Assembly (NCBI GenBank): GCA_002418285.1
Contig: DIDT01000018.1
Span: 90,309 to 154,308, forward strand
DNA: 64,000 bases
Source: Phycisphaerales bacterium UBA5793
Lineage (GTDB): Bacteria; Planctomycetota; Phycisphaerae; Phycisphaerales; UBA5793
Direction of reading: 5' to 3'
Below the pieces are notes generated by a model. The model did not search any database and was not told the DNA's origin. It saw only the letters and a list, made by a program, of their open reading frames with translations. This document shows, in pieces, positions 25,814 through 51,100 of this stretch. Position numbers and translations under genes: made by a program. The number at the start of each line of letters is the position of its first letter. The stretch's first letter is position 1.

Positions 25814-28477
25814 TTATGGTTTGGTCGACTCGGCCGGTGAGCTCGATGACTCGGTCGTCTTGGGAATGCGTCGCGCCCATCGGCTGATCAGAGGCCGGTA
25901 GCGCTGGGGGATCGCCTCTTCATTGAGAGCACGCTCGATCGCCTGCGCCGCTTCACGCAACTGCGTGATGTCCATGGGCTGACGGTCGACAGCGCCTTCC
26001 GGGCGCGCCTGGTCGGGGCCGTACATCTCGGCAATGACGCGATCATTGCCCGGCTTGTCCTGTGTGGAGAGGTTCACATCTTCTGTGTCATACTCAAACA
26101 GTTTCGGATTCTGCACCGCCTGTGTCGGCAGCGTGCGGTCGAGGAGTGATCCGGGAGACCCGTCGGGTCCGCTGGTCCCTCCGGCGGTATTCTCGCGCGC
26201 CCTCTCCGCCGCCCATTGCTCGAGTTCCCGACGTTCTTCAGGCGACATCTGCTCCAGCAATTCCTTGGCGGCGTCGCGCATCTCCTGTGAGATTTCCTGG
26301 TTGGGAGCCGTGCCGCCGTCCTTTGACTTGTCAATCTGATCCAGCGTCTCTCGCAATCGCTTGACCTTGTCGCTGACGCCTTGTGGCCCATCGGCTGTGC
26401 GACCGGAGGGATCAATCCTGGTGTCGCCATTCGGCGTGGGACCCGGACCGGGTGCCTGGCCATCGTCAGAAGACGCGCCGGGAGTCGGTGCCGCGCCTGG
26501 CTCAGTCATGCCCTGACCGGGTTCAGGCTGCGGGGGCTGCGAACCAATGCCCGGCTCAGGTCGCGGCGTCGTGCCTTCCGTGGCCGTGGGCTCGCCTTGC
26601 TCTCCAGGCTGCGGCGTTCCCTCAGACTGGGGCTCTCCACCTTTACCGGGCGGCGGTTCGGTGGCGGGATCTCTGGACACATTTCCGCCCGGCTCAACCT
26701 TTGGCGCTTCGGTCGGCTTCTCGTCCGGCTGGGGCTGCGTCCCCTCGACAGGCTTGGCCGTTTCGCCCGGGGCGGGTGTCGCGTTGGGCTTGGTGCCGTC
26801 TCCCGGTTTGGTAGTTTCCGTCGGTGTGCCGGCCTCACCAGGCTTGGCAGTCTCATGCGGCGTGCCTGGCTGGATTCCTTCCTTGCGAGAATCGGGCTGT
26901 TCCGCGCTCTGACCCTGCTGGTCGCCGGTCGGCGGCTTGTCGCTCGCACCGCGCTCGTCGCCGTCCTGTCCCGCGGGTTTGGCGTTCTCCTCGCCCTGCT
27001 TTCCCGAGCCGTCGGTGCTGCGATCGTCTCCTCCCGGCGATTGCTCCGGTGGAGTGGCATTCGATGGATCGCGCTGAGAATCCGGTTGCGTCTTTGGTCC
27101 GCTCTCCGGTTCAGTCTTCGGCTGCTCGTGGGTCTGGGGTGGTGGAGGTGGCTGATCGATAGTGTCAGCGAGCTCCGACACTCGCCTGGCCGTCTCCTCG
27201 AGTTGCTCGCGCGACTTCTCTTCAGCCGCGCGCTCTGCGAGCTCACGCTGCACCTGCTCGGCCAACTGTTGCGCATCGATCGGATCTTGCCCCTGATCCT
27301 GCAACTCGCGGCGAATCGCGTCGAGCGATGGTATCTCCTGCCGCCACCTCTCGATTTGCTCAGGCGTCAAGCCCAGATCTTCAAGTGACGGGTCTCCGGA
27401 AGTGGCAGATTCAGCCGACTCTGGCGGCTGTGCCGACTTGGAAATCTGCTCCGCTGTCTGGCGCAGGGAGTCGGCCAGAGCCTTCTGCTCCTCGAGCGGC
27501 GCTGCTTTCAATCGTTCTTCAAGTGACTCGAGCCACTTGGTCGCCGCCGCGATGTCGCCGTCCTTCAGCGAGTTGGCAAACTCGTCAGCCGCGCCCGGCG
27601 TAGTGGGAGGCTCAAGATCAGCCAGTCGTTCTGCAGCGCGCTGCTGTCCTTCCCGCTCAATCTGTGCTTCGCGATCGAGACGATCCGCCAGCTCGATCGC
27701 TTCACGCGCCGCCGAGGACAACTCGGCATCACTCGTCCTGGACGCCGTCGACTTTGACCCGGCAGGGGCGTCGCCTGAAGAGGTGTCGAGTTGCTTGGCC
27801 AATCGATCAAGCGTGGCCAGCGCCTGCTGTTTGGCGGCGGCATTGGCCTGCTCCGTCGCCTCTGGATCAGTCGCCGCGTCATCTCGGAGTTGTGCGGCTC
27901 GCTGGCGCAGCGACTCAGCCGCCCGCTGCCGCGCATCCAGCGCGGCGATCTGATCGGCCGTCTGTTCGGGTCGGGCAAAGACGTTGTGTGGTTCGACGAG
28001 CAAGAGCAGCAAAACGCATCCAATCGCGCCAAGCAACGCCGTGCCCCACGACATGGGCCACCTGATGCGGGCCGCTCCGCGCGGGTCGATGCGAGCCGCC
28101 ACTTGCTGCGCGTCTTCATGCACCCATCGCGTCATTGGATTGTCATGATCGGCCGATGACAGCGACTGCACGGAAATCGCCGTGCCGAGTCGATCCTTGA
28201 GCTGCAGGCCGTCGTCGAGCAGCACGGCCGCATCGAGTTCGGCGGCCCGCCGATGCCAGGCGATGGCGCACGCGACGGGAGCGCCGCTGAGCGAGATCAG
28301 TGCGATCATCCACGCGGGCAGCCCCAGTGCCGTGAACCGATCGACGAGCGTCAGCACAAGTGCCGCCGCAACGGAAATGGTCAACCACAGTCCGCCAAGC
28401 CGCACCGCATCGGCAATGAGCAGCCGCCGGCGCGTTCGCGCAATCAATCGCTCAAGATGTGATGCCGGTCGGCTCAT
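25814..28477 (-). CDS. Membrane protein with a long coiled-coil and acidic/Pro-Thr-rich low-complexity region (DUF4175-like by recollection)
   Basis: Start ATG 28477 ([19 protein letters not shown]). Two N-terminal TM helices, an Ala/Glu/Gln-rich coiled coil, about 250 aa of P/T/E/G/K low complexity, and a C-terminal '[12 protein letters not shown]'. Confidence 0.6.
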
Positions 28478-28557
28478 GCTTCTTCCATCGACCACGCGGC
28501 CGCCGTCAAATCAGGCGGTTCTTCCGATTATACAGGAGGAGCGCCGTGCCGGGCTGT

Positions 28558-29340
28558 TCAAACGCATGCTTCGACTGGAATGCCGAAAAAGCGAGCCGTG
28601 TTGGCGTTGATGACCTCGTGAAACGCCTCCCACGACTCGCCACGCAACTCCGCCACGAATCGAGCCGTGTCGGCGGCGTACTGCGGCTCGTTGGGGTAGA
28701 TCTTGCGGTGGGGTTCGGGCGTCAGGAAGGGGGCGTCGGTCTCGATCATGATCCGATCAGCCGGCGTAATCTGCGCCGCTTCCCGGATACTGCCGGCGTT
28801 CTTGAATGTCACGATGCCGGTGTAACTGATCATCGCGCCAAGGTCGAGTACATCGCGAGCATCATCCCGTCCACCCGTAAAGCAGTGAAACACGAACCGC
28901 TCACCCGCCAGGCCGCTGGCCCGGAAGATCGGCAACAGTTCATCAAACGCCTCGCGGCAGTGGACAATGATCGGCAGGCTCAGCCCGCTTCCCTTGATCA
29001 CATCCAGTTGTTCGGCGAGCACGCGGCGCTGAACCTCCAGCGGCGGATGGTCATAGTGCTTGTCCATGCCGAGTTCGCCAAAGGCCACGCACCGGTCGGC
29101 TCGCGCGACCCTGAGCATCGCGTCCCAGTCGGCAGGCTCATCGGCGTGCAGGGGATGCACGCCGGCCGAGCACCACACATTTGAGTGCCCCTCGGCCAGC
29201 CGCAGGCAGTCGTGGGCATTGGCGGTGGTGGTGCAGACGGTAATCGCCCCGACCACGCCACGCAGGCGAGCTGCCTTGAGGACCGCCGGGACGCGACCGG
29301 TGTACTGAGGAAAGGTGAGATGGCAGTGGGTGTCGATCAC
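28558..29340 (-). CDS. tatD: TatD-family metal-dependent hydrolase
   Basis: It has 'MIDTHCHLTF', 'GELGMDKHY', 'IIVHCREA', 'VFHCFTG' and 'IMIETDAPFL'. Confidence 0.9.
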   Translation of the reverse strand: MIDTHCHLTFPQYTGRVPAVLKAARLRGVVGAITVCTTTANAHDCLRLAEGHSNVWCSAGVHPLHADEPADWDAMLRVARADRCVAFGELGMDKHYDHPPLEVQRRVLAEQLDVIKGSGLSLPIIVHCREAFDELLPIFRASGLAGERFVFHCFTGGRDDARDVLDLGAMISYTGIVTFKNAGSIREAAQITPADRIMIETDAPFLTPEPHRKIYPNEPQYAADTARFVAELRGESWEAFHEVINANTARFFGIPVEACV

Positions 29341-29389
29341 GTAAGCACAAGTCTACTCACAACAATTTGTGGAAAACAGCCGTTACCCC

Positions 29390-29418
29390 TTGCGATCGCA
29401 GCGGTTTTCTGTTAGGAT
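29390..29418 (+). promoter_or_regulatory. Candidate sigma70-like promoter for paralog 1
   Basis: TTGCGA, 17-nt spacer, TAGGAT, about 127 nt upstream of ATG 29545. The promoter consensus for this lineage is unknown to me. Confidence 0.25.
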
Positions 29419-29544
29419 GGCGCCAATGTGCTGGCGAGTGGATTGCTCGTGGCATCCGTGGTCTCGCCAGCAGAACTCTGACAGGGGGAGAGTTCGCTCG
29501 TGGCGGCCCCCCTGATCCTTTCGCGCAATGAGGAGGAGTAGATC

Positions 29545-30492
29545 ATGTCGAAGATCCTGCGTAATGGCGTTGCATTGGGCATCGCCGCGATGGCTCTGGC
29601 TTCCGTGGCGAATGCTCAGGTGCTCCGCCCCTCGACGCCGCATGCGGCGTTCAACTACATTCCATTTGGAGGAACCGGACAGGTTTGCACCATGCATCAG
29701 GTGTTCGACCGTTCGCTCTGGAGCGCTCCGATGGAGATCTCTGCCCTCGGCTTTTCAGTGTTTGATACAAACAATGGACAGCGGTATGACAGCGACGTCG
29801 CCATTCGTCTGGGCTACACCGAGAAGGTCCCCGGCCAGAACCCGCCGACTGGTCTTGACGGCGTACTTGCGAACAATCCGAGTGGATCGATGAACGAGGT
29901 CTTCAGCGGTCGGGTCTCTGAAGTGCTCGTTGCCGGCGGCACCGAAGCCTTCACATTCGTGATCCGCTTCGACAGGCCGTGGTGCTATGACCCCGCGCAG
30001 GGCAATCTGCTGGTCGAGATCAAGTCGTCCTGGGTCTCCGGCGCTGACCTCGCCGTCGGTCGAACGTCCGGCAGCGCTGAAGCATCTCGCGCGTACAACT
30101 CGACGCGCTTCGGCGACCTAGCCTCACCCACCACCGCCACCCGCATGGACTTCTACGAGGACGGTTGCAGCGGCGGCGGTCCTTCGCTCCGCGTCACGGG
30201 TGAGTGTCCCGGTCGCGTGACCGTCGCGTGGGGCGGCGCAACACCGAATCGTCCCATGGCGATCGTGTACGCGAATAACACTGGCAGCTTCGTCGTCCCC
30301 GGCGGACCTTGCGCCGGAACGCAACTCGGTCTCGGCACCAGCGGGATTCAGGTCGCCTTTCAGGGCGGAACCGGCTCGGGCTCCGGCCAGGTCAACAGCA
30401 ACGTGGGAACCGGTGTGTGCGGGCACTACATCCAGATGGTCGTAGTCTCCGGCAGCCCATGCGAGACGAGCAACGTCGTACAGTTGCCGTAA
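29545..30492 (+). CDS. Secreted protein, tandem family paralog 1: 'QVF' N-domain plus C-terminal 4-Cys module ending SNVVQLP
   Basis: Signal peptide ...ASVANA|Q and RBS GAGGAGG. It shares 'YDPAQGNLLVEI', 'ASRAYNS..FG' and 'ATRMDF' with paralogs 2-3. The C-terminal module is at nt 30175-30489. Confidence 0.85.
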   Translation: MSKILRNGVALGIAAMALASVANAQVLRPSTPHAAFNYIPFGGTGQVCTMHQVFDRSLWSAPMEISALGFSVFDTNNGQRYDSDVAIRLGYTEKVPGQNPPTGLDGVLANNPSGSMNEVFSGRVSEVLVAGGTEAFTFVIRFDRPWCYDPAQGNLLVEIKSSWVSGADLAVGRTSGSAEASRAYNSTRFGDLASPTTATRMDFYEDGCSGGGPSLRVTGECPGRVTVAWGGATPNRPMAIVYANNTGSFVVPGGPCAGTQLGLGTSGIQVAFQGGTGSGSGQVNSNVGTGVCGHYIQMVVVSGSPCETSNVVQLP

Positions 30493-30533
30493 GTTCAATC
30501 CTGCATTGAGAGCAGGAAACTCAGTCTTTCGGA

Positions 30534-30570
30534 GCAACCTCAGGCCGCGCCTGAGGTTGCTTTCCTTTTT
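30534..30570 (+). terminator. Rho-independent terminator after paralog 1
   Basis: GCAACCTCAGG-ccgcg-CCTGAGGTTGC (11-bp perfect stem) followed by TTTCCTTTTT. Confidence 0.75.
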
Positions 30571-30751
30571 GCATGGCATCTCGCGATCCTCAGGCGAGGC
30601 ATTGGCAGGGAAACGACCGTGATGTGCCACCAAGTTCGCGATTACGGCGCGACTCCGTCGGACCAGCATGTAGCATGCACAAGGCGAACGCGGCTGGTTC
30701 GCGCTGAGTGCACGCCCCTGCGATTCGCGTCAATTCCGTGGAGGTTGCATC

Positions 30752-31675
30752 ATGTCCCGCACCAGTCATTTGAGCGTGGCCGTCGCAGTCGCGGCAGCGG
30801 CATTCACGTCGTCGGCTCTCGCGCAGGTCTATCCGAATTTCGCCCATGAGCACTACAACAGCATGCCCTTCTGGACGGACGAAATCACATACCAGCAGGT
30901 CTTCGCCGCAGTGCAGTTTGGCTCTGCTCCCATCGAGATTCACTCAGTGGCCTTTGCGCCCTCGCCAGCCCATAACGGCGAAGAATTCCTGCTTGACCAG
31001 GTGCGAATTCATCTCGGCTACACCGACAAACAACCCGGCGAACTCTCGCCCGATCTCTCCGCCAACCCGCGCGGTTCCATGACTGAAGTCTGCAATGAGT
31101 TCAACTGCGAAGGTGTTATCGAGTCCGGCGGCGGCGACCACTTCTCGCTTCGCTTCGTCTTCACGACGTCGTTCTGCTATGACCCGGCCAACGGCAACCT
31201 GCTCGTCGAGATCCGGGCCGTGAATACGACGCTCATCGGCATTGCAACTTCGTGCTGTACCGGCATGCCGGCGGCATCACGTGCGTGGAATTCGTTCATG
31301 TTCGGCAACGGCGCCGACACCGTCGCGACGCGCATGGAGTTTCTCATCACCTCATGCGGCGGACCGATGCTGACGCTCGACGGCCACTGCCCAGGTCAGA
31401 TCGACGTCGCGTGGAGCAATGCGGCGCCCGGCGAACAGATGGGCATCGTCTATGCCCATTCGACCGGTTCATTCATGGTCCCCGGTGGACCCTGCGCCGG
31501 GACGCGACTGGGCCTCGGCGCCAATCGACTGCAATTGATCCGCACCGTAGACACCGGCTCTGGTCAGGGCGGCATCAGCGGCAACGCCGGAAGCGGCGCC
31601 TGTGGCGGATACCTTCAACTCGTCGTCGCATCCGGCAATCCCTGCACCGCCAGTAACGTGGCTCAGTTGCCCTGA
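30752..31675 (+). CDS. Secreted protein, tandem family paralog 2: 'YQQVF' N-domain plus C-terminal 4-Cys module ending SNVAQLP
   Basis: Signal peptide ...SSALA|Q. It has 'YQQVFAAVQFGSAPIEIHSVAF', 'YDPANGNLLVEI' and 'ASRAWNSFMFG'. The module is at nt 31358-31672. Confidence 0.85.
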   Translation: MSRTSHLSVAVAVAAAAFTSSALAQVYPNFAHEHYNSMPFWTDEITYQQVFAAVQFGSAPIEIHSVAFAPSPAHNGEEFLLDQVRIHLGYTDKQPGELSPDLSANPRGSMTEVCNEFNCEGVIESGGGDHFSLRFVFTTSFCYDPANGNLLVEIRAVNTTLIGIATSCCTGMPAASRAWNSFMFGNGADTVATRMEFLITSCGGPMLTLDGHCPGQIDVAWSNAAPGEQMGIVYAHSTGSFMVPGGPCAGTRLGLGANRLQLIRTVDTGSGQGGISGNAGSGACGGYLQLVVASGNPCTASNVAQLP

Positions 31676-32037
31676 ATAACGCACGCTCCCAGATCACCGA
31701 ACGTGCCGGGGGGTTGCGAACGCAGCGGCCAATCGCCAGTCGCATCGGCAAGAGGCGAGCGGCCGTCTGATGGAGGGCGTGAACAAGTTGCCCCATCGTG
31801 TCCGAACCACGGCGCGGTCATCCCTCGGTGGGTTACCACACCAGCCAGTAGTTCGTCAGTTCAAAGTGGGAAGGATTGCCTGAATCGTCACGGGGAAGCG
31901 ACCCTGATTCCATTTCAAATCGCCGTTCCGTTTCAAAGTGCGAAAGCACGGCGAACTAAAATGGACCCAGCGACACGTTCGGACCCGCGCTGAATCTGCG
32001 GGCGTCATGGCGCGCAGTACCAAACGGAGAGTAAGAA

Positions 32038-32961
32038 ATGTCTCGGATCAACAAAGTGGCAACCGCGGCAGCTGTCGCGGTGGCGGTATTTGCGTCGTCG
32101 GCAGTCGCCCAGCTCTATCCAAACCATCCGCATGGCGGCTGGAACGGCATTCCGTTCTGGACCCCGCCGTGTGGCTATCAGCAGGTCTTCGCCGCCGGAC
32201 AGTTCGGCTCCTCGCCGATCCTCATCCACTCGTTGTCATTCGCGCCGGATTCGTTCTACAACGGCGAAGACTACATCATCAGCAACCTCGTCGTCCAGGT
32301 CGGGTACACCGACAAAGCGCCGGGCGGGCTTTCGGCCGACCTGCCCAGCAACGTGCGAGGCTCATTGACGCTGGTCATGAATTCGGCATCGTTCCATGGA
32401 ACGGTTGACTCGCAGGGGCCCGACCACTTCTCCATGAGACTCCCCTTCACCACTCCGTTCTGCTACGACCCCGCCAATGGCAACCTCCTGGTGCAGATCG
32501 ACCTGAACGGCAGCTCGCTTGGCATCGCCATTTCAACCACATATGGCCTGCCGGACTCCTCGCGCGCGTGGAATTCTTCGATCTTCGGCAACAGCACCGA
32601 CACCGTGGCTGCTCGCATGATGTTCGAGACTACGCCTTGCACCTCCGGCCTGACCCTCACCCTCGGAGGCCGATGCCCTGGCTCAATCAACGTCGCCTGG
32701 AGCAACGCAACGCCGAGTCGACAGATGGGCATCCTCTACGCCCGGGCAACAGGCAGTTTTGCCGTGCCCGGCGGACCATGCGCCGGAACCCGCCTCGGAC
32801 TGGGCTCCAACCAGCTCCAACTCGTGAACACCATCGGCACCGGCAATGGAACTGGCAACGTCAATGGCCAAGCCGGCTCGGGCGCCTGCGGCGGCTATGT
32901 CCAACTCGTCGTCGTCGACGGCAACCCCTGCACGACCAGCAACGTCTTGCCGTTGCCATAG
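32038..32961 (+). CDS. Secreted protein, tandem family paralog 3: 'YQQVF' N-domain plus C-terminal 4-Cys module ending SNVLPLP
   Basis: Signal peptide ...SSAVA|Q. It has 'YQQVFAAGQFGSSPILIHSLSF' and 'YDPANGNLLVQI'. The module is at nt 32644-32958. Confidence 0.85.
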   Translation: MSRINKVATAAAVAVAVFASSAVAQLYPNHPHGGWNGIPFWTPPCGYQQVFAAGQFGSSPILIHSLSFAPDSFYNGEDYIISNLVVQVGYTDKAPGGLSADLPSNVRGSLTLVMNSASFHGTVDSQGPDHFSMRLPFTTPFCYDPANGNLLVQIDLNGSSLGIAISTTYGLPDSSRAWNSSIFGNSTDTVAARMMFETTPCTSGLTLTLGGRCPGSINVAWSNATPSRQMGILYARATGSFAVPGGPCAGTRLGLGSNQLQLVNTIGTGNGTGNVNGQAGSGACGGYVQLVVVDGNPCTTSNVLPLP

Positions 32962-33005
32962 CGGCGGCCGGCAACTGCCGCGCCCTCGGCGGAACTTGAT
33001 CCCTC

Positions 33006-33044
33006 CAGACAACCTCACGCCTTCAGTGGGGTTGTCTGTTGTAT
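33006..33044 (+). terminator. Terminator-like hairpin after paralog 3
   Basis: CAGACAACCTCAC-gccttca-GTGGGGTTGTCTG (13-bp stem with one G-U), then TTGTAT, a weak U-tract. Confidence 0.5.
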
Positions 33045-33204
33045 AGGTCAAGTCACCCCCAAATGAGCATGAGTGGAGGCAATTCATGCGCAAAAAGGGC
33101 AGAACCTGCACACGAGTTTGCGATCTTCTTGTACAATGAAAGAGCAGAGCCCTTGAGAGTGCTCGCCGTACCGCAACCGTCGTTCTCATGAAGGAGGGAA
33201 CCCA

Positions 33205-34113
33205 ATGCGTACAAGCAAGATGATTTGTGGCCTCGCTGCCCTGGCGCTCGTCGGCGGAGGGAGTGTGGCGTGGGGACAGTTCACGAACGACGATCTGGAG
33301 ACCGGCGATTTCACCGGCTGGACCGTGCAGAACACGCCCAACGGCGTCGGCGCTCCGGGGGTTATCGAGCAGTATGACATTGACGGTGGGGGCCCGAAGC
33401 CTTCGAGCTATGCCGCCAAGTTTGCCGTGGGTCAGGCTCAGTTCCAGTCGGGCCAGCAGGAAGGTGTCGAGATGGTCCAGAGCCTCGATCTCGTCGATGG
33501 CGTGGAATATACCGTCAGCTATTCCTGGGCTACCAAGCGCGAGTCGAATTCCGGCAATGTGACTGGTGGCGTCTTCTCCGTCATCGTCGACGGTCAGATC
33601 GTCGGAACGCCCCTGGATTCGGGCGGCATCGGCGGCAGTTACGGCTTTTACAAATATGGTGAGTACTCCGCCACCTTTACCGCGTCGGGCACCGGGCCGC
33701 ACGAGGTGGGTGCACGCATCACCCGACCCTACCAGTCGCCTGGCGACGTGTTCTCCTATGTCGATGACTTCGACATCGATCCGCCAACTGGCGGTGGCGG
33801 CCCCTCGCTGCGTGCGATCGGTGATTGCCCGGGTCGGGTAACCGTCTCCTGGGCCAACGCAACTCCGAGTCGTCCGATGGCGATTGTCTACGCGAACAAC
33901 ACGGGTAGCTTCGTGGTCCCCGGCGGCCCCTGCGCGGGCACCCCCCTTGGACTCGGCACCAGCGGAATCCACATCGCTTACCAGGGTGGCACCGGTGGTG
34001 GTAGCGGTCAGGTTTCCACGAACATCGGAACGGGCGTGTGCGGCCACTACATTCAGATGGTGGTCGTATCCGGCAGCCCGTGTGAGACGAGCAACGTCGT
34101 CCAACTGCCGTAA
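33205..34113 (+). CDS. Secreted protein, tandem family paralog 4: different (jelly-roll/CBM-like 'GDFTGW') N-domain plus the same C-terminal 4-Cys module ending SNVVQLP
   Basis: Signal peptide ...SVAWG|Q and RBS AAGGAGGG. The N-domain is unrelated to paralogs 1-3. The module at nt 33796-34110 is about 86% identical in protein to paralog 1's module. Confidence 0.85.
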   Translation: MRTSKMICGLAALALVGGGSVAWGQFTNDDLETGDFTGWTVQNTPNGVGAPGVIEQYDIDGGGPKPSSYAAKFAVGQAQFQSGQQEGVEMVQSLDLVDGVEYTVSYSWATKRESNSGNVTGGVFSVIVDGQIVGTPLDSGGIGGSYGFYKYGEYSATFTASGTGPHEVGARITRPYQSPGDVFSYVDDFDIDPPTGGGGPSLRAIGDCPGRVTVSWANATPSRPMAIVYANNTGSFVVPGGPCAGTPLGLGTSGIHIAYQGGTGGGSGQVSTNIGTGVCGHYIQMVVVSGSPCETSNVVQLP

Positions 34114-34157
34114 TCGGAACCAACCAGCGCCGTGCGTGCGGCACCTGCGACAAACAA

Positions 34158-34196
34158 CAACCTCATCCCGCGGCGGGATGAGGTTGCGTTTTTTTC
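34158..34196. terminator. Strong bidirectional rho-independent terminator
   Basis: CAACCTCATCCCGC/GCGGGATGAGGTTG (up to 14-bp complementary arms), followed by CGTTTTTTT on the + strand and by TTGTTGTTTG on the - strand. Confidence 0.8.
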
Positions 34197-34243
34197 AGAG
34201 CTTCCCATGCGGTACGTTGCGACCCGCAGGTTGGCGAAGTGAC

Positions 34244-34471
34244 TCACGCCGCTGGGCGGGGGCCGTCATCTTCGAGGCCATCCAATTGCTGCCGGAACGA
34301 ATCCAGCGTGGTGCTGAGTCGATCGATCGTCCGCAGGGCTTCGTCGCCGGGATCCACGCCGTCGGCGGCAGGATGGAGCATGTCTTCGATCAGTCGGAAG
34401 GGGAGTGGCCCAAAGTCGTCCTCGCTGTCAGGGCTGCACGTCTCGGTGAGCCTCAGATTGGGGTAAACCAT
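34244..34471 (-). CDS. Small acidic hypothetical protein (75 aa)
   Basis: AAGGAG lies 9 nt upstream of ATG 34471. It ends 48 nt before the bidirectional terminator. It has no recognisable family, so it could be spurious. Confidence 0.3.
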   Translation of the reverse strand: MVYPNLRLTETCSPDSEDDFGPLPFRLIEDMLHPAADGVDPGDEALRTIDRLSTTLDSFRQQLDGLEDDGPRPAA

Positions 34472-34601
34472 CGCATCGCACTCCTTGAAGTGGTTAATCG
34501 TCTGGATCGAGGTCTCCTCTTCAAGATCGTCAAGTTACGTGGATACCTTGACTTAGGGGTGGAATCAGAGTTTTCTGGACCGGATCGACCTGCAAAGTCG
34601 T

Positions 34602-34626
34602 ACAAAAACCACCCGGAACACTCCGG
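34602..34626 (-). terminator. Terminator-like hairpin after dnaB
   Basis: On the - strand: CCGGAgtgtTCCGG followed by GTGGTTTTTGT, about 40 nt after the dnaB stop. The stem is short. Confidence 0.4.
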
Positions 34627-34663
34627 ATTGGCCATGTCTGATAACCGGAGTTGGTTCAGGCGT

Positions 34664-36193
34664 TCAGATCGGGATGTCGTCGGACAGGTCCGCCGGGGCG
34701 GCCGGCTGCGCAGAACGCCCTCCCGCGGCACCTGCCGATGCGTAGGGCGAAGCACTCCCCCGGGGGCCGCGCGGGGCCTCGACTGGCGGCATCATGGGTG
34801 AGAAGTCCTTGAACTTCATGCTCGTGCCCACCCAGGTCAGTTCGACCGTGCCGGTCGGGCCGTTGCGCTGCTTGGCGACGATGAGTTCGGCAATATTGGA
34901 CGGTTCAAAATCCGGCTTGCTCTGGTTGTAGTAATCCTCGCGGTGCAGCATCATCACCACGTCCGCGTCCTGTTCGATCGAGCCTGATTCGCGCAGATCC
35001 GCCATCCGCGGGCGGTGATCTTCCCGATTCTCCGCGGCTCGGTTCAACTGGCTCAGGCAGATGACCGGAATGTTCAGTTCGCGCGCCAGCGACTTGACGC
35101 CACGGCTGATCTCCGCGACTTCCTGCTGGCGCGACTCGCGCGTCATACCCATCATCAACTGCAGATAGTCCACGATAATCAGCTTCACCTGGTGCTTGGC
35201 CACCATGCGACGAGCCTTGGCTCGCAATCCGAGCACGCTCAATCCCGGCGTGTCATCAATAAAGAGCGGAGCTTCGCTGAGACGGCCCATTGCGAACGCC
35301 AGTCGATCCCGTTCGGGCTTGGTAATCATGTTGCGCCGAAGTCTGCCTGAATCTACTTCCGCGTGGGATGCCAGCAGTCGCTCTCCCAACTGCTGCTTTC
35401 CCATCTCCAGGCTGAATACGCCGACCGGCGTGCTCATCATTGCAATATTCTCAGCGATGTTTAGTGCGAGCGCCGTCTTACCCATTGATGGACGTGCGGC
35501 GATGATGATCATTTCACCAGCTTGCAAACCAGAGAGCTTCTCGTCTAGTCCACGAAAATGCGTTTCGAGCCCGGTGATTCGGCCTTCCTCGCGAGCATGA
35601 ATTGACTCCATCACTTCGTGAATTATCTCGTTTAGTGACCGTGTACCTTCATGGTCAAACTGGAGCACGACGTCAAAGATCGCACGCTGGGCGGCGTCCA
35701 GAACATCGCGCACCTCGCCACCGTCGGTGTACGCCGCTTGCAGGATCTCGCCCGCGGCGCCGATGAGCCTCCGCACGAGAGCCTTCTCCGCCACCACCTT
35801 GGCGTAGTACGGCGCATTGATCGCCGCGGGAACACTCTCGGCAAGTTGAACGAGGTAATCGACACCGCCGACATCCGCCAGAACGCCTTTCTCCTCCAAC
35901 CGCTGGTGGAGCAGGGCGATGTCGCCGGCAGCATGCCGATCGTACAACTCGACGAGGGAGGCAAACACCGCGCCATGAGCCGGCCGGTAGAAGTCCTCAG
36001 GGGACTTGACGATCAGAATAACATCACCGATCACCTTGGGGTCGAGGATCATCGAACCCAGCAATGCCATCTCGGTTTCAACCGAGTGCGGCGGCAGGCG
36101 GTCAAAGAGGGCGCCGAGTTCCACCGAGTGACGCTCGCCGCGCCGACCGGAACGGCCGGGCGCACCTGAAGAATTGGCGGGAATCTGGGTCAT
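34664..36193 (-). CDS. dnaB: Replicative DNA helicase
   Basis: It has 'PPHSVETEMALLGSMILDP', Walker A 'AARPSMGKTALALNIA', 'IIVDYLQLM' and 'QLNRAAE'. Start set at ATG 36193. It carries an extra roughly 45-aa Ala/Pro/Gly-rich C-terminal tail. Confidence 0.95.
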   Translation of the reverse strand: MTQIPANSSGAPGRSGRRGERHSVELGALFDRLPPHSVETEMALLGSMILDPKVIGDVILIVKSPEDFYRPAHGAVFASLVELYDRHAAGDIALLHQRLEEKGVLADVGGVDYLVQLAESVPAAINAPYYAKVVAEKALVRRLIGAAGEILQAAYTDGGEVRDVLDAAQRAIFDVVLQFDHEGTRSLNEIIHEVMESIHAREEGRITGLETHFRGLDEKLSGLQAGEMIIIAARPSMGKTALALNIAENIAMMSTPVGVFSLEMGKQQLGERLLASHAEVDSGRLRRNMITKPERDRLAFAMGRLSEAPLFIDDTPGLSVLGLRAKARRMVAKHQVKLIIVDYLQLMMGMTRESRQQEVAEISRGVKSLARELNIPVICLSQLNRAAENREDHRPRMADLRESGSIEQDADVVMMLHREDYYNQSKPDFEPSNIAELIVAKQRNGPTGTVELTWVGTSMKFKDFSPMMPPVEAPRGPRGSASPYASAGAAGGRSAQPAAPADLSDDIPI

Positions 36194-42504: not shown

Positions 42505-44490
42505 ATGCAACCGAACCGGAGTTGCTTCATGCGTTTGACGGTCGGCATCGCCGTCCTTTGGACTTTCACCCTGACTCTGGCCGGACCGGTCACGCAGACG
42601 GACTGGTCCGCTGGTGGACAGGTTGACGGTCCGGTGCTGCACTGGAACGGCAGTTTTGCGGATCAGTCTGGTGTAGCGTGGCGGTCAGTCGAGGGGCAGA
42701 TCGCCCTCGCCGGGTCGCAGCGCGGCCAGGCAGTGCGAGTTGTGGTCGATGAAAACGCCGACCTGCCGCGCGGCGCAGCCGCCGGCGACTTCGACGGCGA
42801 TGGCCGCACCGACATCGTCATTGGCGATCCCGTCACCGATCCATTCAATCCGATCGGCGCCATCTACTGGTGGCACGCCGAAGCGAATGGGAGCTGGACC
42901 AGGGGATACGTCTCGCAAACGTACTACGGCATCAACTTCCTCACGACCGCCGACGTCGACGGCGACGGGGACACCGATATCGTCGCCGCCGCCTACTACG
43001 GCGCCATCGATCCTCCACCCCCGCCACCCGAGTATCGCAACGGTCGATACACGTGGTTCGAAAACGTCAACGGCGAGGGGTCTGCATGGGATGAGCACAC
43101 GGTCGGAGAGTTGTATTGGGGTGCGGAATACATCGACGTGGGTGACTTCGACGGCGATGGTGACTTGGATTTCGTCGGGGCGTCCTACCTCACGCGCGGC
43201 GTCTATGAGCAGTCGAATGACATTACCTGGTTTGAGAATCTCGATGGCCAGGGCGACGCATGGGAAGCGCACGGAGTCAGTGCCGTCTACAACAACGGAT
43301 ATGAAGCGCACTTTGTCGACCTCGACGGCGACGATGATCTCGACATCCTCGCCACCCATGCCGATCGAATCTCCTGGTGGGAAAACCGCACGGGAACCGG
43401 CGACGACCTCGTGGAACACGTCATCACGGCTTCGCTGATGAACGTCGGCTATGTCAATGCAGGAGATATCGACAACGACGGCGACCTCGACATCGTTGGC
43501 TCAACCTACAGCACTTCCTCTCTCTTCTGGTGGGAGAATTCCAATGGTCTCGGCACGGCGTGGCTCCAACATGTCATCGGTGCCCATCCCAAGGGCGAAC
43601 AGGTCGAACTCGTCGATATCGAGGGCGATGGTGATCTCGATATCGTGGGTGACCGTCGACCCAGCGGAACGTATGGCGCGTTGACGATCTATACCAATGT
43701 CGATGGAAACGGCTTCACGTGGAGCGGCCGGACGGTGTCGATCGAGTCGAACACCGACTACTCGATCGCGATCGCCGATGCCGACAGCGATGGAAAAGTC
43801 GATGTCCTCGTCGCGAGTGAGGATTACTATCGCGCTCTGGGCAAGCAGGTGTCGTTTTTCAACCTCTCGACCTTTGGCTCAAGCGGCAGCCTCACCAGTT
43901 CGATTCTCGACGGCGGAACGATGCCTGGCTGGGGCGTCATGGCCTGGGATGCCGATACCCACAACGGCACATCACTTGCGGTGGCGATCCGCGCATCTGA
44001 TGACGCGAACGACCTCGGTTCGTTCGTTCAGGTGCCGACCTCCGGCACCGACCTTGCCACGCTGGTAAACAGCAACGCCCGCTACGTGCAGTATCGTCTG
44101 ACGCTCTCCGGCGGATCGGAGGTCTCGCCCGTCATTCGCGAGCTGGGCATCGCTCGAGTGGGCGGGGGCAATGGGTTGATTCTTGCCGGACCCCCGCAGG
44201 CAACGGCCGGAAGGTCGCTTGAGCTGGGCGTCCAGTCGGATCAGATCGGAGCTCGCGTGGTCTTTGCCGGAGCAGTTTCGACCGGGCGCACACCCATTCC
44301 GCCATGCCCCGGGGTGACGGCCGGCTTGGCCTCGCCGATGCGATTGGGTGCTTCGTTCATCAACGCAAGTGGTGAAGCGAGACGATCCGTTCGGATTCCC
44401 CTCGCGGCGAAAGGTCGCATGCTGTATTTCCAGGCGCTCGACGCCTCCGATTGCGTGGTCAGCAACGTGGTCGCTATCCCGGTCGACTGA
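42505..44490 (+). CDS. Secreted FG-GAP/VCBS-repeat (integrin-alpha-like propeller) protein with relaxed C-terminal module
   Basis: Signal peptide present. It has repeated Ca-binding loops (DFDGDGRTDIV, DVDGDGDTDIV, DFDGDGDLDFV, DLDGDDDLDIL, DIDNDGDLDIV, DIEGDGDLDIV, DADSDGKVDVL) and 'W(F/W)EN' strands. The C-terminal module is at nt 44176-44487. Confidence 0.85.
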   Translation: MQPNRSCFMRLTVGIAVLWTFTLTLAGPVTQTDWSAGGQVDGPVLHWNGSFADQSGVAWRSVEGQIALAGSQRGQAVRVVVDENADLPRGAAAGDFDGDGRTDIVIGDPVTDPFNPIGAIYWWHAEANGSWTRGYVSQTYYGINFLTTADVDGDGDTDIVAAAYYGAIDPPPPPPEYRNGRYTWFENVNGEGSAWDEHTVGELYWGAEYIDVGDFDGDGDLDFVGASYLTRGVYEQSNDITWFENLDGQGDAWEAHGVSAVYNNGYEAHFVDLDGDDDLDILATHADRISWWENRTGTGDDLVEHVITASLMNVGYVNAGDIDNDGDLDIVGSTYSTSSLFWWENSNGLGTAWLQHVIGAHPKGEQVELVDIEGDGDLDIVGDRRPSGTYGALTIYTNVDGNGFTWSGRTVSIESNTDYSIAIADADSDGKVDVLVASEDYYRALGKQVSFFNLSTFGSSGSLTSSILDGGTMPGWGVMAWDADTHNGTSLAVAIRASDDANDLGSFVQVPTSGTDLATLVNSNARYVQYRLTLSGGSEVSPVIRELGIARVGGGNGLILAGPPQATAGRSLELGVQSDQIGARVVFAGAVSTGRTPIPPCPGVTAGLASPMRLGASFINASGEARRSVRIPLAAKGRMLYFQALDASDCVVSNVVAIPVD

Positions 44491-44806: not shown

Positions 44807-46582
44807 ATGCGCAAAGTTCACGTTGGAACCGCGGTCCTTGCCGCATGCCTCAGCTCTGCCGCACTCGCTCAGCAATGGCGACCGCTGACCCACCAGTCCA
44901 GCGTTCGGGTCTACGGCTACTTCCTGCTCATGGACGGTCGAGTTCTCGCCAATGAGTGCGAGCAGAGCGGCATCGCAACCACCCGCTGGTGGACCCTTAC
45001 GCCGGACAGTTCCGGCAGCTACCTCAACGGCACCTGGTCGCAGGTGGGCAGCACCGTCTACACGCATCTCTATTTCGCCTCGTCCATTACGCCTGCGGGC
45101 AAGGTTCTCGTCGCAGGCGGCGAATACAGCACCGGTGGTTCCGAGACCAACAAGTGCGAACTCTTCGACCCCATCGCCAACACGTGGTCGCCAGTCACGC
45201 CGCCGAGCGGCTGGAACAACATTGGCGACGCTCCCGCGGCGACGCTGCCCGATGGCCGCATGATCGTCGGCGATATCTTCGGCCGGCGCACCGCACTCTA
45301 CAACCCGGCTACCAACACGTTCTCAGCCGGGCCCAACAAACTCAACTCACGCACCACCGAAGAAACGTGGATCACGTTGCCCGATGGCACAGTGGCAACA
45401 TGGGATTGTTTTGGCCACCCGGGGTCCGAGCGCTATCTGCCTTCCACCAATCAGTGGATTTCCTGCGGCAACACGCCGGTTGATCTCGTCCTTCCCAACT
45501 CATTCGAAACCGGCGCCGGCATCGTGTTGCCCGACGGGCGGATGTTCGCCATCGGCGGAACGCCCCGCACCTGCTACTACCAGTATCCTCAGAACATCAA
45601 CGATCCGGGGACATGGACAGTTGGCCCGACGCCGCCCCTGGTGAATGGGCTTACCGTCGGAGCCGAAGATGCTCCTGCTGCACTGGCTCCCAATGGTCGC
45701 GTGCTCATGCCCCTCGGTCGAGTGTCCGCCGGTGGTGGCGAGTTCTTCGCGCCGACCTACTTCTTCGAGTACAACGGCAACAGCATCGTGCGCATCCCCG
45801 ACGCGCCCAATTCGAGCGGACCGCCATACGTCGGCCGTCTCCTGCTCCTGCCCACGGGCGAGATTCTGTGGACCGCAGGAACCGCGGATGCCTACCTCTA
45901 TACCAATGGCGGCTCGGCCAATCCGGCGTGGAAACCCGCTGTCACCGACGTGCCCGGCAATCTGCAGCGCCAACAGAGCTACACACTTCAGGGAACCCAA
46001 CTCACGGGCGTGTCCAACGGTTGCAGCTACGGTGACGAGTATGACCCGGCAACGAACTACCCGCTCATCCGCCTCGATAACACAAGCACGCGACTGGTGT
46101 ATTACGCCCGCACATTCAATCCCAGCACCCGACAGATCCAGACCGGCAACAGCATTCTCAGCGTTGGCTTCGAACTGGGAGGCAACGTGCCGGACGGTCC
46201 GTACGAACTTCGAGTCATCGCCAACGGCATCTCCTCCGATCCTGTCAATGTCCAGGTCGGCAATGGAGGCGGCATCAACCTGACCGTTACAGGCACCTGC
46301 CCGGGCTCGATCACCGTGCAGTGGTCCAATGCGCAGCCCAGCTCGACCGTTGCGCTGATCTATGCAAGGAACACCGGTTCGTTTGTGATTCCCTTCGGGC
46401 CGTGCCAGGGAACGGTTCTGGGTCTCGGGAACCAGGGCATCCGCTTGGTCAACACATTCGCATCCGATCCCGCAGGTGCTGGAAGTCGCAGTGGCTCCAT
46501 CTTCGCGCGGGCCTGCCACGACTACCTGCAGATGCATGATCTGCCGAACTGCACGTTGAGCAACGTGGCTCAGATCCCGTGA
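44807..46582 (+). CDS. Secreted kelch-type propeller protein (galactose/glyoxal-oxidase-like, with Ig-like domain) plus C-terminal 4-Cys module ending SNVAQIP
   Basis: Signal ...SSAALA|Q. It has kelch-like blades ('GKVLVAGGEY', 'LPDGRMIVG', 'LPDGRMFAIGG', 'APNGRVLMPLG'). 'YPLIRLDNTSTRLVYYART...YELRVIANGISS' resembles the E-set domain of glyoxal oxidases. The module is at nt 46274-46579. Confidence 0.8.
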   Translation: MRKVHVGTAVLAACLSSAALAQQWRPLTHQSSVRVYGYFLLMDGRVLANECEQSGIATTRWWTLTPDSSGSYLNGTWSQVGSTVYTHLYFASSITPAGKVLVAGGEYSTGGSETNKCELFDPIANTWSPVTPPSGWNNIGDAPAATLPDGRMIVGDIFGRRTALYNPATNTFSAGPNKLNSRTTEETWITLPDGTVATWDCFGHPGSERYLPSTNQWISCGNTPVDLVLPNSFETGAGIVLPDGRMFAIGGTPRTCYYQYPQNINDPGTWTVGPTPPLVNGLTVGAEDAPAALAPNGRVLMPLGRVSAGGGEFFAPTYFFEYNGNSIVRIPDAPNSSGPPYVGRLLLLPTGEILWTAGTADAYLYTNGGSANPAWKPAVTDVPGNLQRQQSYTLQGTQLTGVSNGCSYGDEYDPATNYPLIRLDNTSTRLVYYARTFNPSTRQIQTGNSILSVGFELGGNVPDGPYELRVIANGISSDPVNVQVGNGGGINLTVTGTCPGSITVQWSNAQPSSTVALIYARNTGSFVIPFGPCQGTVLGLGNQGIRLVNTFASDPAGAGSRSGSIFARACHDYLQMHDLPNCTLSNVAQIP

Positions 46583-47936: not shown

Positions 47937-48013
47937 CGCGACCTTCAGACGCTCTGTTTCAAGGCCGAATCCCCCTTTCCGAGCCTCCAGCCTCCCAAAT
48001 GGTTGGCGAATTT

Positions 48014-48042
48014 TTGCATTTTCTGCATATTTGACGTATGTT
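48014..48042 (+). promoter_or_regulatory. Candidate sigma70-like promoter in an AT-rich patch
   Basis: TTGCAT, 17-nt spacer, TATGTT, about 95 nt upstream of ATG 48138. It is followed by a perfect 8-bp hairpin CTTGCCGG-catc-CCGGCAAG at 48069-48088 in the putative leader. Confidence 0.3.
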
Positions 48043-48137
48043 TGGGCGGTAATCAGAGCAGGCCATCGCTTGCCGGCATCCCGGCAAGAAGGGAAATGCT
48101 GCCGCAGGCGGAAACAGCCAACCACCGGAGGAGAGAT

Positions 48138-51100
48138 ATGTCATCGTCGCACGGCACGAATCGGGTCACCAGTCACGCGCGTTCATTTCCTGCAGCGATG
48201 CTGCTCTGCGTCGGTCTTGCCGCCGTCTGTACCTCAACACTCTGGGGCGAACCGGACGGATTGCCAGATCGAGTCAACCACTCCACGATGGATGAACTCT
48301 TTGGTGGCGCCGCCATCGAGACTCAGGCCAATGTCTTCACCGGCAGCGCACAGGAGCACGGGGCGCTCACGGCTCTGTCCGGCGGTGGCTTCGTGGCCGT
48401 GTGGGACAGCCGGCGGCAGGAGCACGGCGACTACGCCGTGGTCGCGCAGCGCTTCGATGCGTTCGGGCGAGCCATCGGCGGCGAAGTCCCCATCAACGCT
48501 TTTGCTCGCGGCATGCAGGAGCGCCCCGCCGTTATCGCAAGCGGCGAGTCCATCTGGTTCGTCTGGCAGTCGCATGGTCAGGATGGCAGCGCCGCCAGCA
48601 TCGTCGCCCGTCGATTCGATCACGAACTCAGGAACGCCAGCGCCGAGATTCCGGTCAATCAAACGCAGACTGGCAACCAGATGCTTCCGGCCATCGTCGA
48701 TGACGGAGCCGGTGGCGTTGTCATCGCATGGGTGGATGATTCCACCGGAGCCAGTCGAATCATGAGCCGCACCTTTGACGCGGAAGGTTCACCGATCTGC
48801 GATGAGTCTGCCGTGAGTGGAGATGTGCCCGGAAACAACTCAAATGTATCTATCGGGCGCGCCTCAGATGGCTCCTACCTCGTCGCGTGGGCGCGAACGG
48901 ATGAGCAGGGCAATCCCAACGCCGTGATCGCCCGACGCATCGCGAGGGATGGAACCCTCAGTAGTGATGAACTGATCCTCAACGAAATGGACGGGAGCGA
49001 TCACATCGAACCATCCATCGCGATGACCCGTGATGGCGGTTTCGTCGGCGCCTGGCATACCGCTGCCGATGGCGGGTTCACCGTCGATGTGCGCTTTTTT
49101 GACGCCGATGGATCACCCTTGACCGACCGCATGACCGTCGCAGGGCCGTCAAACGGGTGGAAGAGCGCGGCGACCGTACTCCGAGTTACCGATGATCGCT
49201 ACCTCGTCGTCTACAACAGTGACGGCGCCGGCGGCGACGGGAACGGCTCGGGCGTCATGGGGCAACTCATCGACGCACAGGGAGACATTCTCGCCTCACC
49301 CATGGTCCTCAATGTGAACACAAACGGTCTGCAGGAAATCACTCCCGCAACCGGCGCCAACCGAGTGGTAATCGATGAGGCAGGCCGACTCGCCACCTGC
49401 TGGAATGGCGCTTCACACGAGGGCGACGAGTCTTCCGTCAATCTCACCGTGCGGCTGCCGTTGGAGATGGCCGTTGCTGCGGCCGAGCCGGCTGGCGAGC
49501 GTCTCGCTTACTTGGTGTCGGAAGTCGATGCAAACACCCCCAACCCGCCCATCTGGGATCCCAACCATGTAGAGCTTGAACGCCTCGGCAACAGCGGCGG
49601 TGATGGGCCGGACTTCGGCTTCGAAGGCGTGACGAACACAGGGTGGACACCGCCTGATCCGGAAATGGCCGTCGGGCCCGACCGCATCCTCGCTATCACC
49701 AATGGTGAGATTACCCTCTTTGACAAGTCCGGCAACAACCTCTTCCGCGACGAGATTGAAGACTCATTTGGGTTCTGGGGAGAACTGGGCGCGACGAACT
49801 TCGTCTTCGATCCCGAGTGCGTCTGGGATCCCCATTCCCAGCGTCTCTTCGCCATGGCCTGCGAGCGCAGCAATACCGGCCGTTCGATGTTCCTGCTCGC
49901 CGTCTCAAAGACCAGTTCACCCAACACCCGGACCGATTGGTGGAAGTATCGCATCGACGTGACGTCACTTTCGGGCAATGACATCGACTCGCCGAACATG
50001 GCCGTCGACGCCAACAATGTGCTGCTTACCGCCGACTTCTTCTCACCCGACAAATATCTTCTCTACTTCATCGATAAGAATTCAATTCTCGCTGGCGGCA
50101 CGCCGGTAGCCAGGAGCGAGTTGATCACGGGGGCCAGCCAGCAGTCGATGGGCATTCCCGTCATGCACGACGCCAACGCCCCGGCCCAGTACATCCTCCA
50201 GTCTACCGAACTCACCAACAACAACACGGTGATCTTCCACGCCACGCGCGACCCATTCGGCTCCTACACCCGCGTGACCTACACGCTGACGGTTCCGGCC
50301 TACACCTATCCGAATCAACCGCCGCAGCGCGGCTCAAGCAGTCGTCCGTTCCTCTTCGAACCCCGCTTCTGGAGTTGCGTGGCCATCAACGATTCGCTCT
50401 GGGCCGTGCATCACGTCAACTCCTCCCGCGCACGCGTGCGCTGGTACGAGTTCAACATGCGCGGCTGGCCGACGAGCGGTAACAACCCCGAGATTGCCCA
50501 GTGGGGCGAACTCGACTATGGCGGCACGATCCACACCTTCTTCCCGAGCATCGGTGTCGATTCCCAAGGCAATGCTGCGATCACCTTTGCGCGATCCTCG
50601 CCGGATGAATACATCTCGATGTCGCGGGCAGTGCGCAAATTCAGCGATCCTCCCGGAACATTCCAGCCGCCCCAGTTCGTCAAGGAGAGCACCGCCGCGC
50701 ACACCTCCGGTCGCTGGGGCGATTACAGCGCCACGGTGAATGATCCGGCGACGCTCGGCTCATTCTGGGGGCATCATGAATTCACGCTCAACGGTCAGTG
50801 GCGCACGTGGATCGCCCGCTACGACGTCGGTAATCCGCCGATGATCCTCGTCTCCTCGCGACTCGTGTCGGGTGTGCGCGGAACGTTGGATGTCACCGGC
50901 GCCACGCCCAACGGGCAAGTAGTCTTCTTCTACTCGATTCGTGGGTCGGGCAGCACGTACGTTTCGCAACTTGACGTGACGCTCGATCTCAACGCGCCCG
51001 TCTTCCTCGGCGCACGCCTCGCGGACGAAAACGGCGCGGTGAGCCTCTCCAGGCACATACCTGATGGAACGACCGGTCGAAGAGTCTGGTTGCAGGCCGC

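Follow-up and report, generated by a model that had tools for sequence, protein, structure and literature searches.

A shared C-terminal module in a tandem gene array of a Phycisphaerales bacterium: exchange among unrelated secreted proteins and a possible role in surface anchoring or sorting

The tandem array and its genes

The window analysed in this study is a stretch of 64,000 nucleotides of contig DIDT01000018.1 (positions 90,309 to 154,308) of Phycisphaerales bacterium UBA5793, and it holds, between positions 29545 and 34113, a tandem array of four genes, here termed p1 to p4, whose products all terminate in one type of module (the C-module) while their N-terminal domains (N-domains) belong to two unrelated families. 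The architecture can be read directly from the open reading frame (ORF) listing: p1 (29545-30492, + strand, 315 amino acids (aa)) encodes a signal peptide at approximately aa 1-24 (assigned by eye), a predicted jelly-roll N-domain at approximately aa 26-207, a Gly-rich linker and a C-module (30175-30489), and the same layout recurs in p2 (30752-31675, + strand, 307 aa; C-module 31358-31672) and p3 (32038-32961, + strand, 307 aa; C-module 32644-32958). The product of p4 (33205-34113, + strand, 302 aa) likewise begins with a signal peptide by eye and ends in a C-module (33796-34110), the intervening N-domain (33277-33795), with its 'GDFTGWT' motif, being unrelated to that of p1-p3. Independent gene calls on publicly available versions of this contig, from JGI metagenome 3300029304 and from two Logan assemblies, give the same four genes.

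The C-module, which comprises the last ~105 residues of each product, contains four invariant Cys residues, starts after the Gly-rich linker (p1 ...SGGGPSLRVTGECPG; p4 ...GGGGPSLRAIGDCPG) and closes with a conserved ...C-x-T-S-N-V-x-Q-[ILV]-P at the protein's own C-terminus, p1-p4 having L before P. Comparison of the C-modules with the window by tblastn gave E values of 1e-31 to 1e-53, far below those expected by chance, and pairwise alignment gave identities of 86% (aa) and 77% (DNA) for p1-p4, 70% for p2-p3, 57% for p1-p2 and p1-p3, and 56% for p2-p4 and p3-p4. Neither Pfam-A nor NCBIfam contains a matching model (whole proteins at E<=1; eight isolated modules at E<=10), a profile search of PDB sequences returned no meaningful relative and literature searches produced no description of it; it is an uncatalogued domain that occurs in Planctomycetota and chiefly in Phycisphaerales. 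AlphaFold2 modelling from a 47-sequence alignment predicts a beta-sandwich of six to seven strands (predicted local distance difference test (pLDDT) 92.7; predicted template modelling score (pTM) 0.82), and since the best Foldseek matches in the PDB, fibronectin type III (FN3) monobodies, are weak (E >= 6e-3, TM ~0.5), the modelled fold is described as FN3/Ig-like without a close solved relative. Its Cys residues are probably disulfide-bonded.

The N-domain common to p1-p3 spans approximately 180 aa (tblastn against the window, E 1e-24 to 1e-63) with identities of 42% (p1-p2), 39% (p1-p3) and 56% (p2-p3), every sequence motif that a first-pass annotation of the window had listed for it is present in all three, and that of p3 is 84-92% identical to its orthologs in five other genomes. 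The p4 N-domain, when compared with the window by tblastn, matches itself alone, and alignment of its family (32 sequences) with that of p1-p3 (38 sequences) by hhalign gave a probability of 0.2% and an E value of 0.3, i.e. homology is undetectable. The annotation's description of p4 as an unrelated N-domain that retains the C-module at a p1-like junction was thereby upheld, while its phrase 'four paralogs' is correct for the C-module and not for p4 as a whole, which is a paralog of p1-p3 in that module alone. Neither N-domain matches Pfam-A or NCBIfam (whole proteins at E<=1; isolated domains at E<=10), and the p1-3 type profile has no sequence relative in the PDB. The p1 N-domain is modelled by AlphaFold2 as a beta-jelly-roll (pLDDT 95.9) whose Foldseek matches in the PDB are weak and include phage baseplate receptor-binding proteins, PHR, CBM32 and Eph ligand-binding domains; a ligand-binding role would fit this model, which proves nothing in that regard.

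Each gene is preceded by its own long spacer (204, 259, 362 and 243 bp for p1-p4 in order, the first being measured from the divergent TatD start at 29340) and by a Shine-Dalgarno-like purine run before its ATG. Strong terminator hairpins follow p1 (30531-30563, + strand; 15-bp stem, z -4.2, U-rich tail) and p4 (34158-34186, + strand; 13-bp stem then U7, z -3.6), the latter being bidirectional as it also scores on the - strand, and a further strong hairpin, with a weak U tract, follows p3 (33006-33038, + strand; 13-bp stem, z -3.0); folding of the 3' flank of p2 revealed no significant hairpin (z -1.0). The gene starts, the spacer range of 204-362 bp and the three hairpins are thus as first annotated. 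All three stems have CAACCTCA in common, and the duplications therefore reached beyond the stop codon.

An Rfam scan of 29000-34700 at E<=1 gave no match, leaving the long spacers without a known RNA family, and a sigma-70 promoter scan returned zero sites. Related motifs are present 143 nt before the ATG of p2 (GGAAACGACCGTGAT, 30609-30623, + strand) and 144 nt before that of p3 (GGAAGCGACCCTGAT, 31894-31908, + strand), with the consensus GGAA[AG]CGACC[GC]TGAT; the p3 motif is also kept before p3 orthologs in four other genomes (L008, L006, L004 and L007), and a small CGCGC...GCGCG hairpin approximately 40-55 nt before the ATG is likewise conserved. Together these may constitute a promoter or operator and a 5' untranslated region element.

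Three further carriers bring the total in the window to seven, with five canonical and two divergent C-modules: p5 (44807-46582, + strand), a 591-aa Kelch/galactose-oxidase-like protein with a canonical C-module (46268-46579); p6 (42505-44490, + strand), a 661-aa FG-GAP/VCBS propeller that ends in a divergent two-Cys C-module (E 4e-8); and p7 (54433-56064, + strand), a 543-aa BNR/Asp-box protein with a divergent C-module at its end (E 3e-5). The N-termini of p1-p7, read by eye, display a basic n-region, a hydrophobic core and an AxA/AxG-Q site, consistent with Sec signal peptides. An ORF at 48003-51146 (+ strand, 1047 aa, no Pfam match) has last ~100 residues that resemble a Cys-less C-module (VTGATPNGQVVFF...WLQAAE...) at a non-significant E value of 0.33, and homologs of this ORF recur near C-module genes in nine of the fetched loci.

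Among the neighbours of the array, a small ORF (34244-34471, - strand) between p4 and dnaB is conserved in all syntenic genomes (L004, L006, L007 and L008), with a product of 74-102 aa across genomes and no Pfam match. On the other side, an ORF of 893 aa (25814-28495, - strand; no Pfam match), syntenic beside TatD in at least four genomes, encodes a Pro/Glu/Thr/Gln-rich protein with an N-terminal transmembrane segment and produces a strong AT-skew anomaly (-0.345 at 26-28 kb).

Exchange of the C-module between genes

The array was compared across six genomes, namely the window (W1-W4 denoting the array genes p1-p4) and genomes designated A-E. The slot occupied by the array, between TatD and the small ORF followed by DnaB, is conserved while its gene content varies, with four genes in the window, two in genome A (L004), at least three in B (L007) and three each in C (L006) and D (L008); in genome E (L005), the three carriers stand in another gene neighbourhood. 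The genome E cluster (L005 1-4550) lies approximately 3 kb downstream of a phage-integrase/DUF3987/HTH_17 block and may sit near an integrated element.

Strong incongruence between the N-domain and C-module trees was observed across these genomes. The N-domain tree resolves into clean orthologous groups, i.e. {W1,A1}, {W2,D2,C2} and {W3,D3,C3,A2,B2}, each with a bootstrap of 100, and {C1,E3,D1} with 74, whereas the C-module tree groups genes of the same genome irrespective of their N-domain: {W1,W4}, {E1,E2,E3}, the latter with three unrelated N-domains, and {A1,B3} with a bootstrap of 100, {C2,C3} with 92 and {D1,D3} with 86. The same discrepancy is seen in pairwise identities, W1 and A1 being 73% identical in the N-domain and 35% in the C-module, and W4 and B3 73% and 32%, respectively.

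At the DNA level, tracts of high identity end at or before the stop codon and are confined to the C-module, flanks being at background in every pair. B1 and B3 are 100% identical over no fewer than 225 nt up to the stop codon; E2/E3 share 96-100% starting at -203 and E1/E3 mostly 93-100% starting at -254, both as far as the stop; and C2/C3 share 90-100% between -224 and -74. The 5' starts of these tracts vary inside the C-module, and complete swaps stop at the linker, where homology ends. Being confined to the module, the tracts indicate gene conversion. Such conversion or shuffling extends beyond tandem neighbours, as module pairs of the same genome with at least 80% identity and unrelated N-domains were found on different contigs in three metagenome-assembled genomes (MAGs), and the nearest-neighbour module lay in the same genome for 47 of 123 modules, against 19.9 expected by chance. 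The earlier proposal that the module behaves as an independently mobile unit is borne out by both the tree incongruence and the module-confined tracts.

For p1 and p4, the synonymous divergence of the modules (dS 1.27; non-synonymous divergence, dN, 0.10) places their relationship as old, the similarity having been kept by strong purifying selection (omega 0.08). Recent conversion was considered as its source and rejected on account of this dS value; the recent tracts are those of the other genomes.

Domain shuffling was also weighed against an origin of the array by whole-gene tandem duplication alone, with p4 as a fast-diverged copy. The genes p1-p3 clearly are whole-gene paralogs, and in the window alone the C-module tree, ((p1,p4),(p2,p3)), is compatible with the N-domain tree, (p1,(p2,p3)). 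However, hhalign shows no homology between the two N-domain families, that of p4 is a family in its own right with its own PEP-CTERM and dockerin variants (see below), the cross-genome incongruence carries 86-100% bootstrap and the conversion tracts are limited to the C-module; the explanation by duplication alone is refuted, with virtually no probability left to it.

Distribution, passengers and alternative tails

An exhaustive search with a hidden Markov model (HMM) covered 1.84 billion representatives of 50%-identity clusters and detected the C-module in 2075 of them at E<=1e-3 and in 1165 at E<=1e-10. Its position is strictly terminal: in 138 of 139 new top representatives it is followed by 0-4 residues only, and among the first 94 p1 matches all full-length carriers whose module is complete have it at the end in the same way. 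A second, internal copy occurs in 11 of the 139. One 2565-aa protein (P0225) contains 14 partial internal repeats that match module profile positions 8-81, after which the sequence is HYR-like; the protein resembles a distant relative of the Ig-repeat type and hints at an origin of the C-module in a repeating Ig-like unit of an adhesin.

Scanning a single genome for each species with a 9-sequence alignment yielded 78 loci from approximately nine MAG species of Phycisphaerales, Phycisphaerae and Planctomycetota, and the fetched loci contained 123 non-redundant C-modules, the five best-sampled MAGs having 31, 30, 17, 15 and 11 in the sampled parts of their genomes (loci of 6-20 kb). At least 13 of the C-module loci (L016, L022, L024, L028, L032, L037, L051, L053, L054, L061, L071, L077 and L083) are from a MAG labelled 'Vicinamibacteraceae bacterium PLA1' (WYBR01); this label is probably wrong, since both its modules and its N-domains share 82-97% identity with their counterparts in the Phycisphaerae MAG Bin_17.

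The passengers are very diverse: 31 Pfam families were recognised among 105 representatives, among them SBBP, FG-GAP, Kelch and PQQ propellers, DUF4394, DUF7948, beta-helix, subtilase S8, C-type lectin and ThuA, and no Pfam model covers the C-module itself. There are also stand-alone proteins of 127-145 aa that consist of a signal peptide and a C-module (P0151, P0181, P0187, P0207, P0214, P0242, P0246 and others), which could act as scaffold, cap or competitor.

Substitution of the C-module by other tails is observed among homologs of the array proteins. When the 94 p1 homologs were sorted with custom HMMs, four architectures emerged: the p1-3 type N-domain with a C-module (22 of 94), with PEP-CTERM (11) or with a Cys-rich, dockerin-like tail of the GC type (6-7), and the C-module with other N-domains (~50). 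Three proteins with the p1-3 type N-domain (P0048, P0059 and P0031) pass the NF041540 GC-type dockerin model (cut-off 29 bits), and another, P0032, passes the curated cut-offs of both TIGR02595 (18.8 against 16 bits) and PF07589 (24.8 against 20.7 bits), so that the PEP-CTERM connection of this N-domain, put forward in the first-pass annotation, proved real. The p4 N-domain family (32 homologs) has three tail types likewise: C-module (P0020, P0026, P0095-97 and P0117), PEP-CTERM (ten proteins) and GC-type dockerin (approximately fourteen proteins). All tails attach a few residues past the last strand of the N-domain (...ATRMxF... in the p1-3 type; ...YVDNF... in the p4 type), and in view of this common joining site the 'fixed junction' of the array is the C-terminal boundary of the passenger domain, at which three tail types are exchanged.

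The array proteins themselves have neither of the other two tails. Genes p1-p4 gave no match to TIGR02595 or PF07589 (whole proteins at E<=1; isolated modules at E<=10), P0032 passing as the positive control, and none to NF041540; their products end in ...PCETSNVVQLP, lack both a hydrophobic helix and a basic cluster, and so depart from the tripartite PEP-CTERM design. A custom GC-dockerin HMM detected none in ~660 kb of module-bearing genomes, a sample biased to module loci from which absence is not concluded. Homologs of the p4 and p1 types with GC-dockerin tails were also found as tandem pairs (L087 10001-11607 and L088 7044-9015; 255+255 aa and 272+273 aa), which makes tandem duplication a trait of the passenger families, whatever their tail.

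Possible function and comparison with known systems

The strictly terminal position of the module, its copy number, the diversity of its passengers and its substitution by PEP-CTERM and GC-type dockerin tails on homologous N-domains would suggest that the C-module is a C-terminal surface-anchoring or sorting domain that binds a shared envelope partner, a reading to which we assign about an even chance. In this reading the array encodes four proteins, putatively transcribed independently and secreted through Sec, that consist of two domains each: a predicted beta-jelly-roll at the N-terminus with a probable role in ligand binding (one family supplies three of the copies, an unrelated family the fourth) and, attached to it by the Gly-rich linker, an FN3-like, four-Cys module of ~105 residues ending at the C-terminus. 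The module is attached, within one genome, to dozens of secreted proteins that have nothing else in common, and it would hold its passenger at the cell surface via a shared envelope partner, be it protein or glycan, or route the passenger there, filling the role that PEP-CTERM/exosortase and GC-type dockerin tails have on homologous N-domains. The module evolves as a unit: homologous recombination between module-coding regions, tandem as well as dispersed, repeatedly overwrites one module with another in tracts whose 5' limit is the linker, where homology is lost, and whose 3' limit is the stop codon. More tentatively, and with a probability that we place distinctly lower, the C-module may be the recognition domain of an undescribed sorting or anchoring system of Phycisphaerales/Planctomycetota, functionally parallel to exosortase/PEP-CTERM, cohesin-dockerin and the C-terminal domain (CTD) of the type IX secretion system (T9SS), its subtypes being receptor-matched by genome-wide gene conversion.

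Set beside the Haft criteria for C-terminal sorting signals (section 5 of 10.1101/2023.06.07.544157), the C-module agrees with numbers 1, 2, 6 and 7, i.e. terminal position, copies per genome, a probable signal peptide on the carriers (by eye) and carrier diversity, and departs from those that concern a transmembrane helix and an Arg cluster.

Several observations weigh against an anchoring or sorting role of this kind. The C-module has neither the transmembrane helix nor the Arg cluster of classical sorting signals and does not point to a sorting enzyme; no recurrent neighbouring partner gene was found in ~660 kb around 78 loci, the search returning mostly antisense ORF artefacts; the stand-alone proteins and the internal copies are unexpected of a simple disposable tag and fit a binding domain better; several C-module subtypes per genome complicate a single-receptor model; and the presence of PEP-CTERM proteins in the same MAGs implies that the C-module is no simple replacement of PEP-CTERM. 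The data are, in addition, mostly derived from MAGs, in which conversion could seem more frequent than it is through mixed strains or chimeric assembly, and B1 is located at a contig end, though the genome E tracts are internal to their contig.

Some of these observations would equally be expected if the C-module were a generic domain for binding or adhesion outside the cell (CBM-like, or serving protein contact or oligomerisation) with no sorting or attachment role, its terminal position merely reflecting the way in which modular secreted proteins are built. The FN3/Ig-like sandwich is a generic fold, and the stand-alone proteins, the internal extra copies together with the 14 partial repeats of P0225, the presence of several subtypes in one genome and the lack of a partner gene at the 78 loci are all in keeping with such a domain. 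An ordinary binding domain is, however, rarely held to the extreme C-terminus in 138 of 139 diverse representatives, it is unusual for such a domain to take exactly the place of two recognised sorting or anchoring tails, and to do so on two unrelated N-domains, and the conserved ...C-x-T-S-N-V-x-Q-[ILV]-P end suggests that the terminus matters; we therefore deem this explanation unlikely, albeit one to be taken seriously.

A rather more improbable explanation is that the C-module is a secretion signal akin to the T9SS CTD, which would be read by an outer-membrane translocon and then cleaved or swapped for an anchor. The length of ~100 aa, the beta-sandwich, the strictly C-terminal position and the dozens of diverse cargos per genome all speak for it, the T9SS CTD being of such size, fold, position and cargo diversity. 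Against this, the T9SS CTD models TIGR04183, TIGR04131 and Por_Secre_tail gave no match at E<=10 with eight isolated modules, no T9SS CTD structure was among the top 50 Foldseek matches of the C-module in the PDB, and T9SS is not known in Planctomycetota. No T9SS component was encountered among the Pfam-scanned genes of the window. Furthermore, cargo-less stand-alone modules make little sense for a signal alone, and the four invariant Cys residues point to a stable, disulfide-bonded domain.

Little is understood of how Planctomycetota, and especially the almost uncultured Phycisphaerales, present their many enzymes and binding proteins at the cell surface. The C-module family comprises no fewer than 1165 clusters at 50% identity, has no entry in Pfam or NCBIfam and labels secreted proteins by the dozen in a single genome; it would offer a handle for the prediction of surface proteomes, a query for phylogenetic profiling of the associated machinery and a candidate display tag. 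With tracts that stop at the linker and the stop codon, it also represents a clean natural example of module-level concerted evolution. A passenger domain with interchangeable C-terminal sorting or anchoring tails is well known; what is new to the libraries and literature searched is the C-module, both N-domains and the module-restricted concerted evolution.

Among the known systems, the T9SS CTD (type A, TIGR04183; type B, TIGR04131) of Bacteroidota is the closest functional analogy, as it too is a beta-sandwich, ~80-100 residues long, that forms the very C-terminal end of diverse secreted or surface proteins, tens of them in each genome; in contrast, there is no sequence match, the phylum is a different one, and the four invariant Cys residues and the stand-alone copies are features of the C-module. 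The GC-type dockerin (NF041540) resembles the C-module in being a Cys-containing, C-terminal, alternative tail on both N-domain families in Planctomycetota and in occurring in tandem gene pairs, but it has a dockerin/EF-hand-like fold of ~30-residue repeats ending in GC and no sequence similarity to the C-module. PEP-CTERM/exosortase tails occupy the same position and boundary on homologs of both N-domains and are present in many copies per genome on diverse Sec-secreted proteins of the same phylum and even of the same MAGs, whereas PEP-CTERM itself consists of approximately 25 residues with a motif, a transmembrane helix and an Arg cluster, and the C-module is a predicted folded beta-sandwich of ~105 residues that contains four Cys and has neither a hydrophobic helix nor a basic tail. 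The 'choice-of-anchor' concept (D. Haft, NCBIfam) refers to one passenger domain with differing C-terminal sorting or anchoring tails, and although the N-domains of the array match no NCBIfam model at E<=10 and so stand outside the named families, both of them behave as this concept describes.

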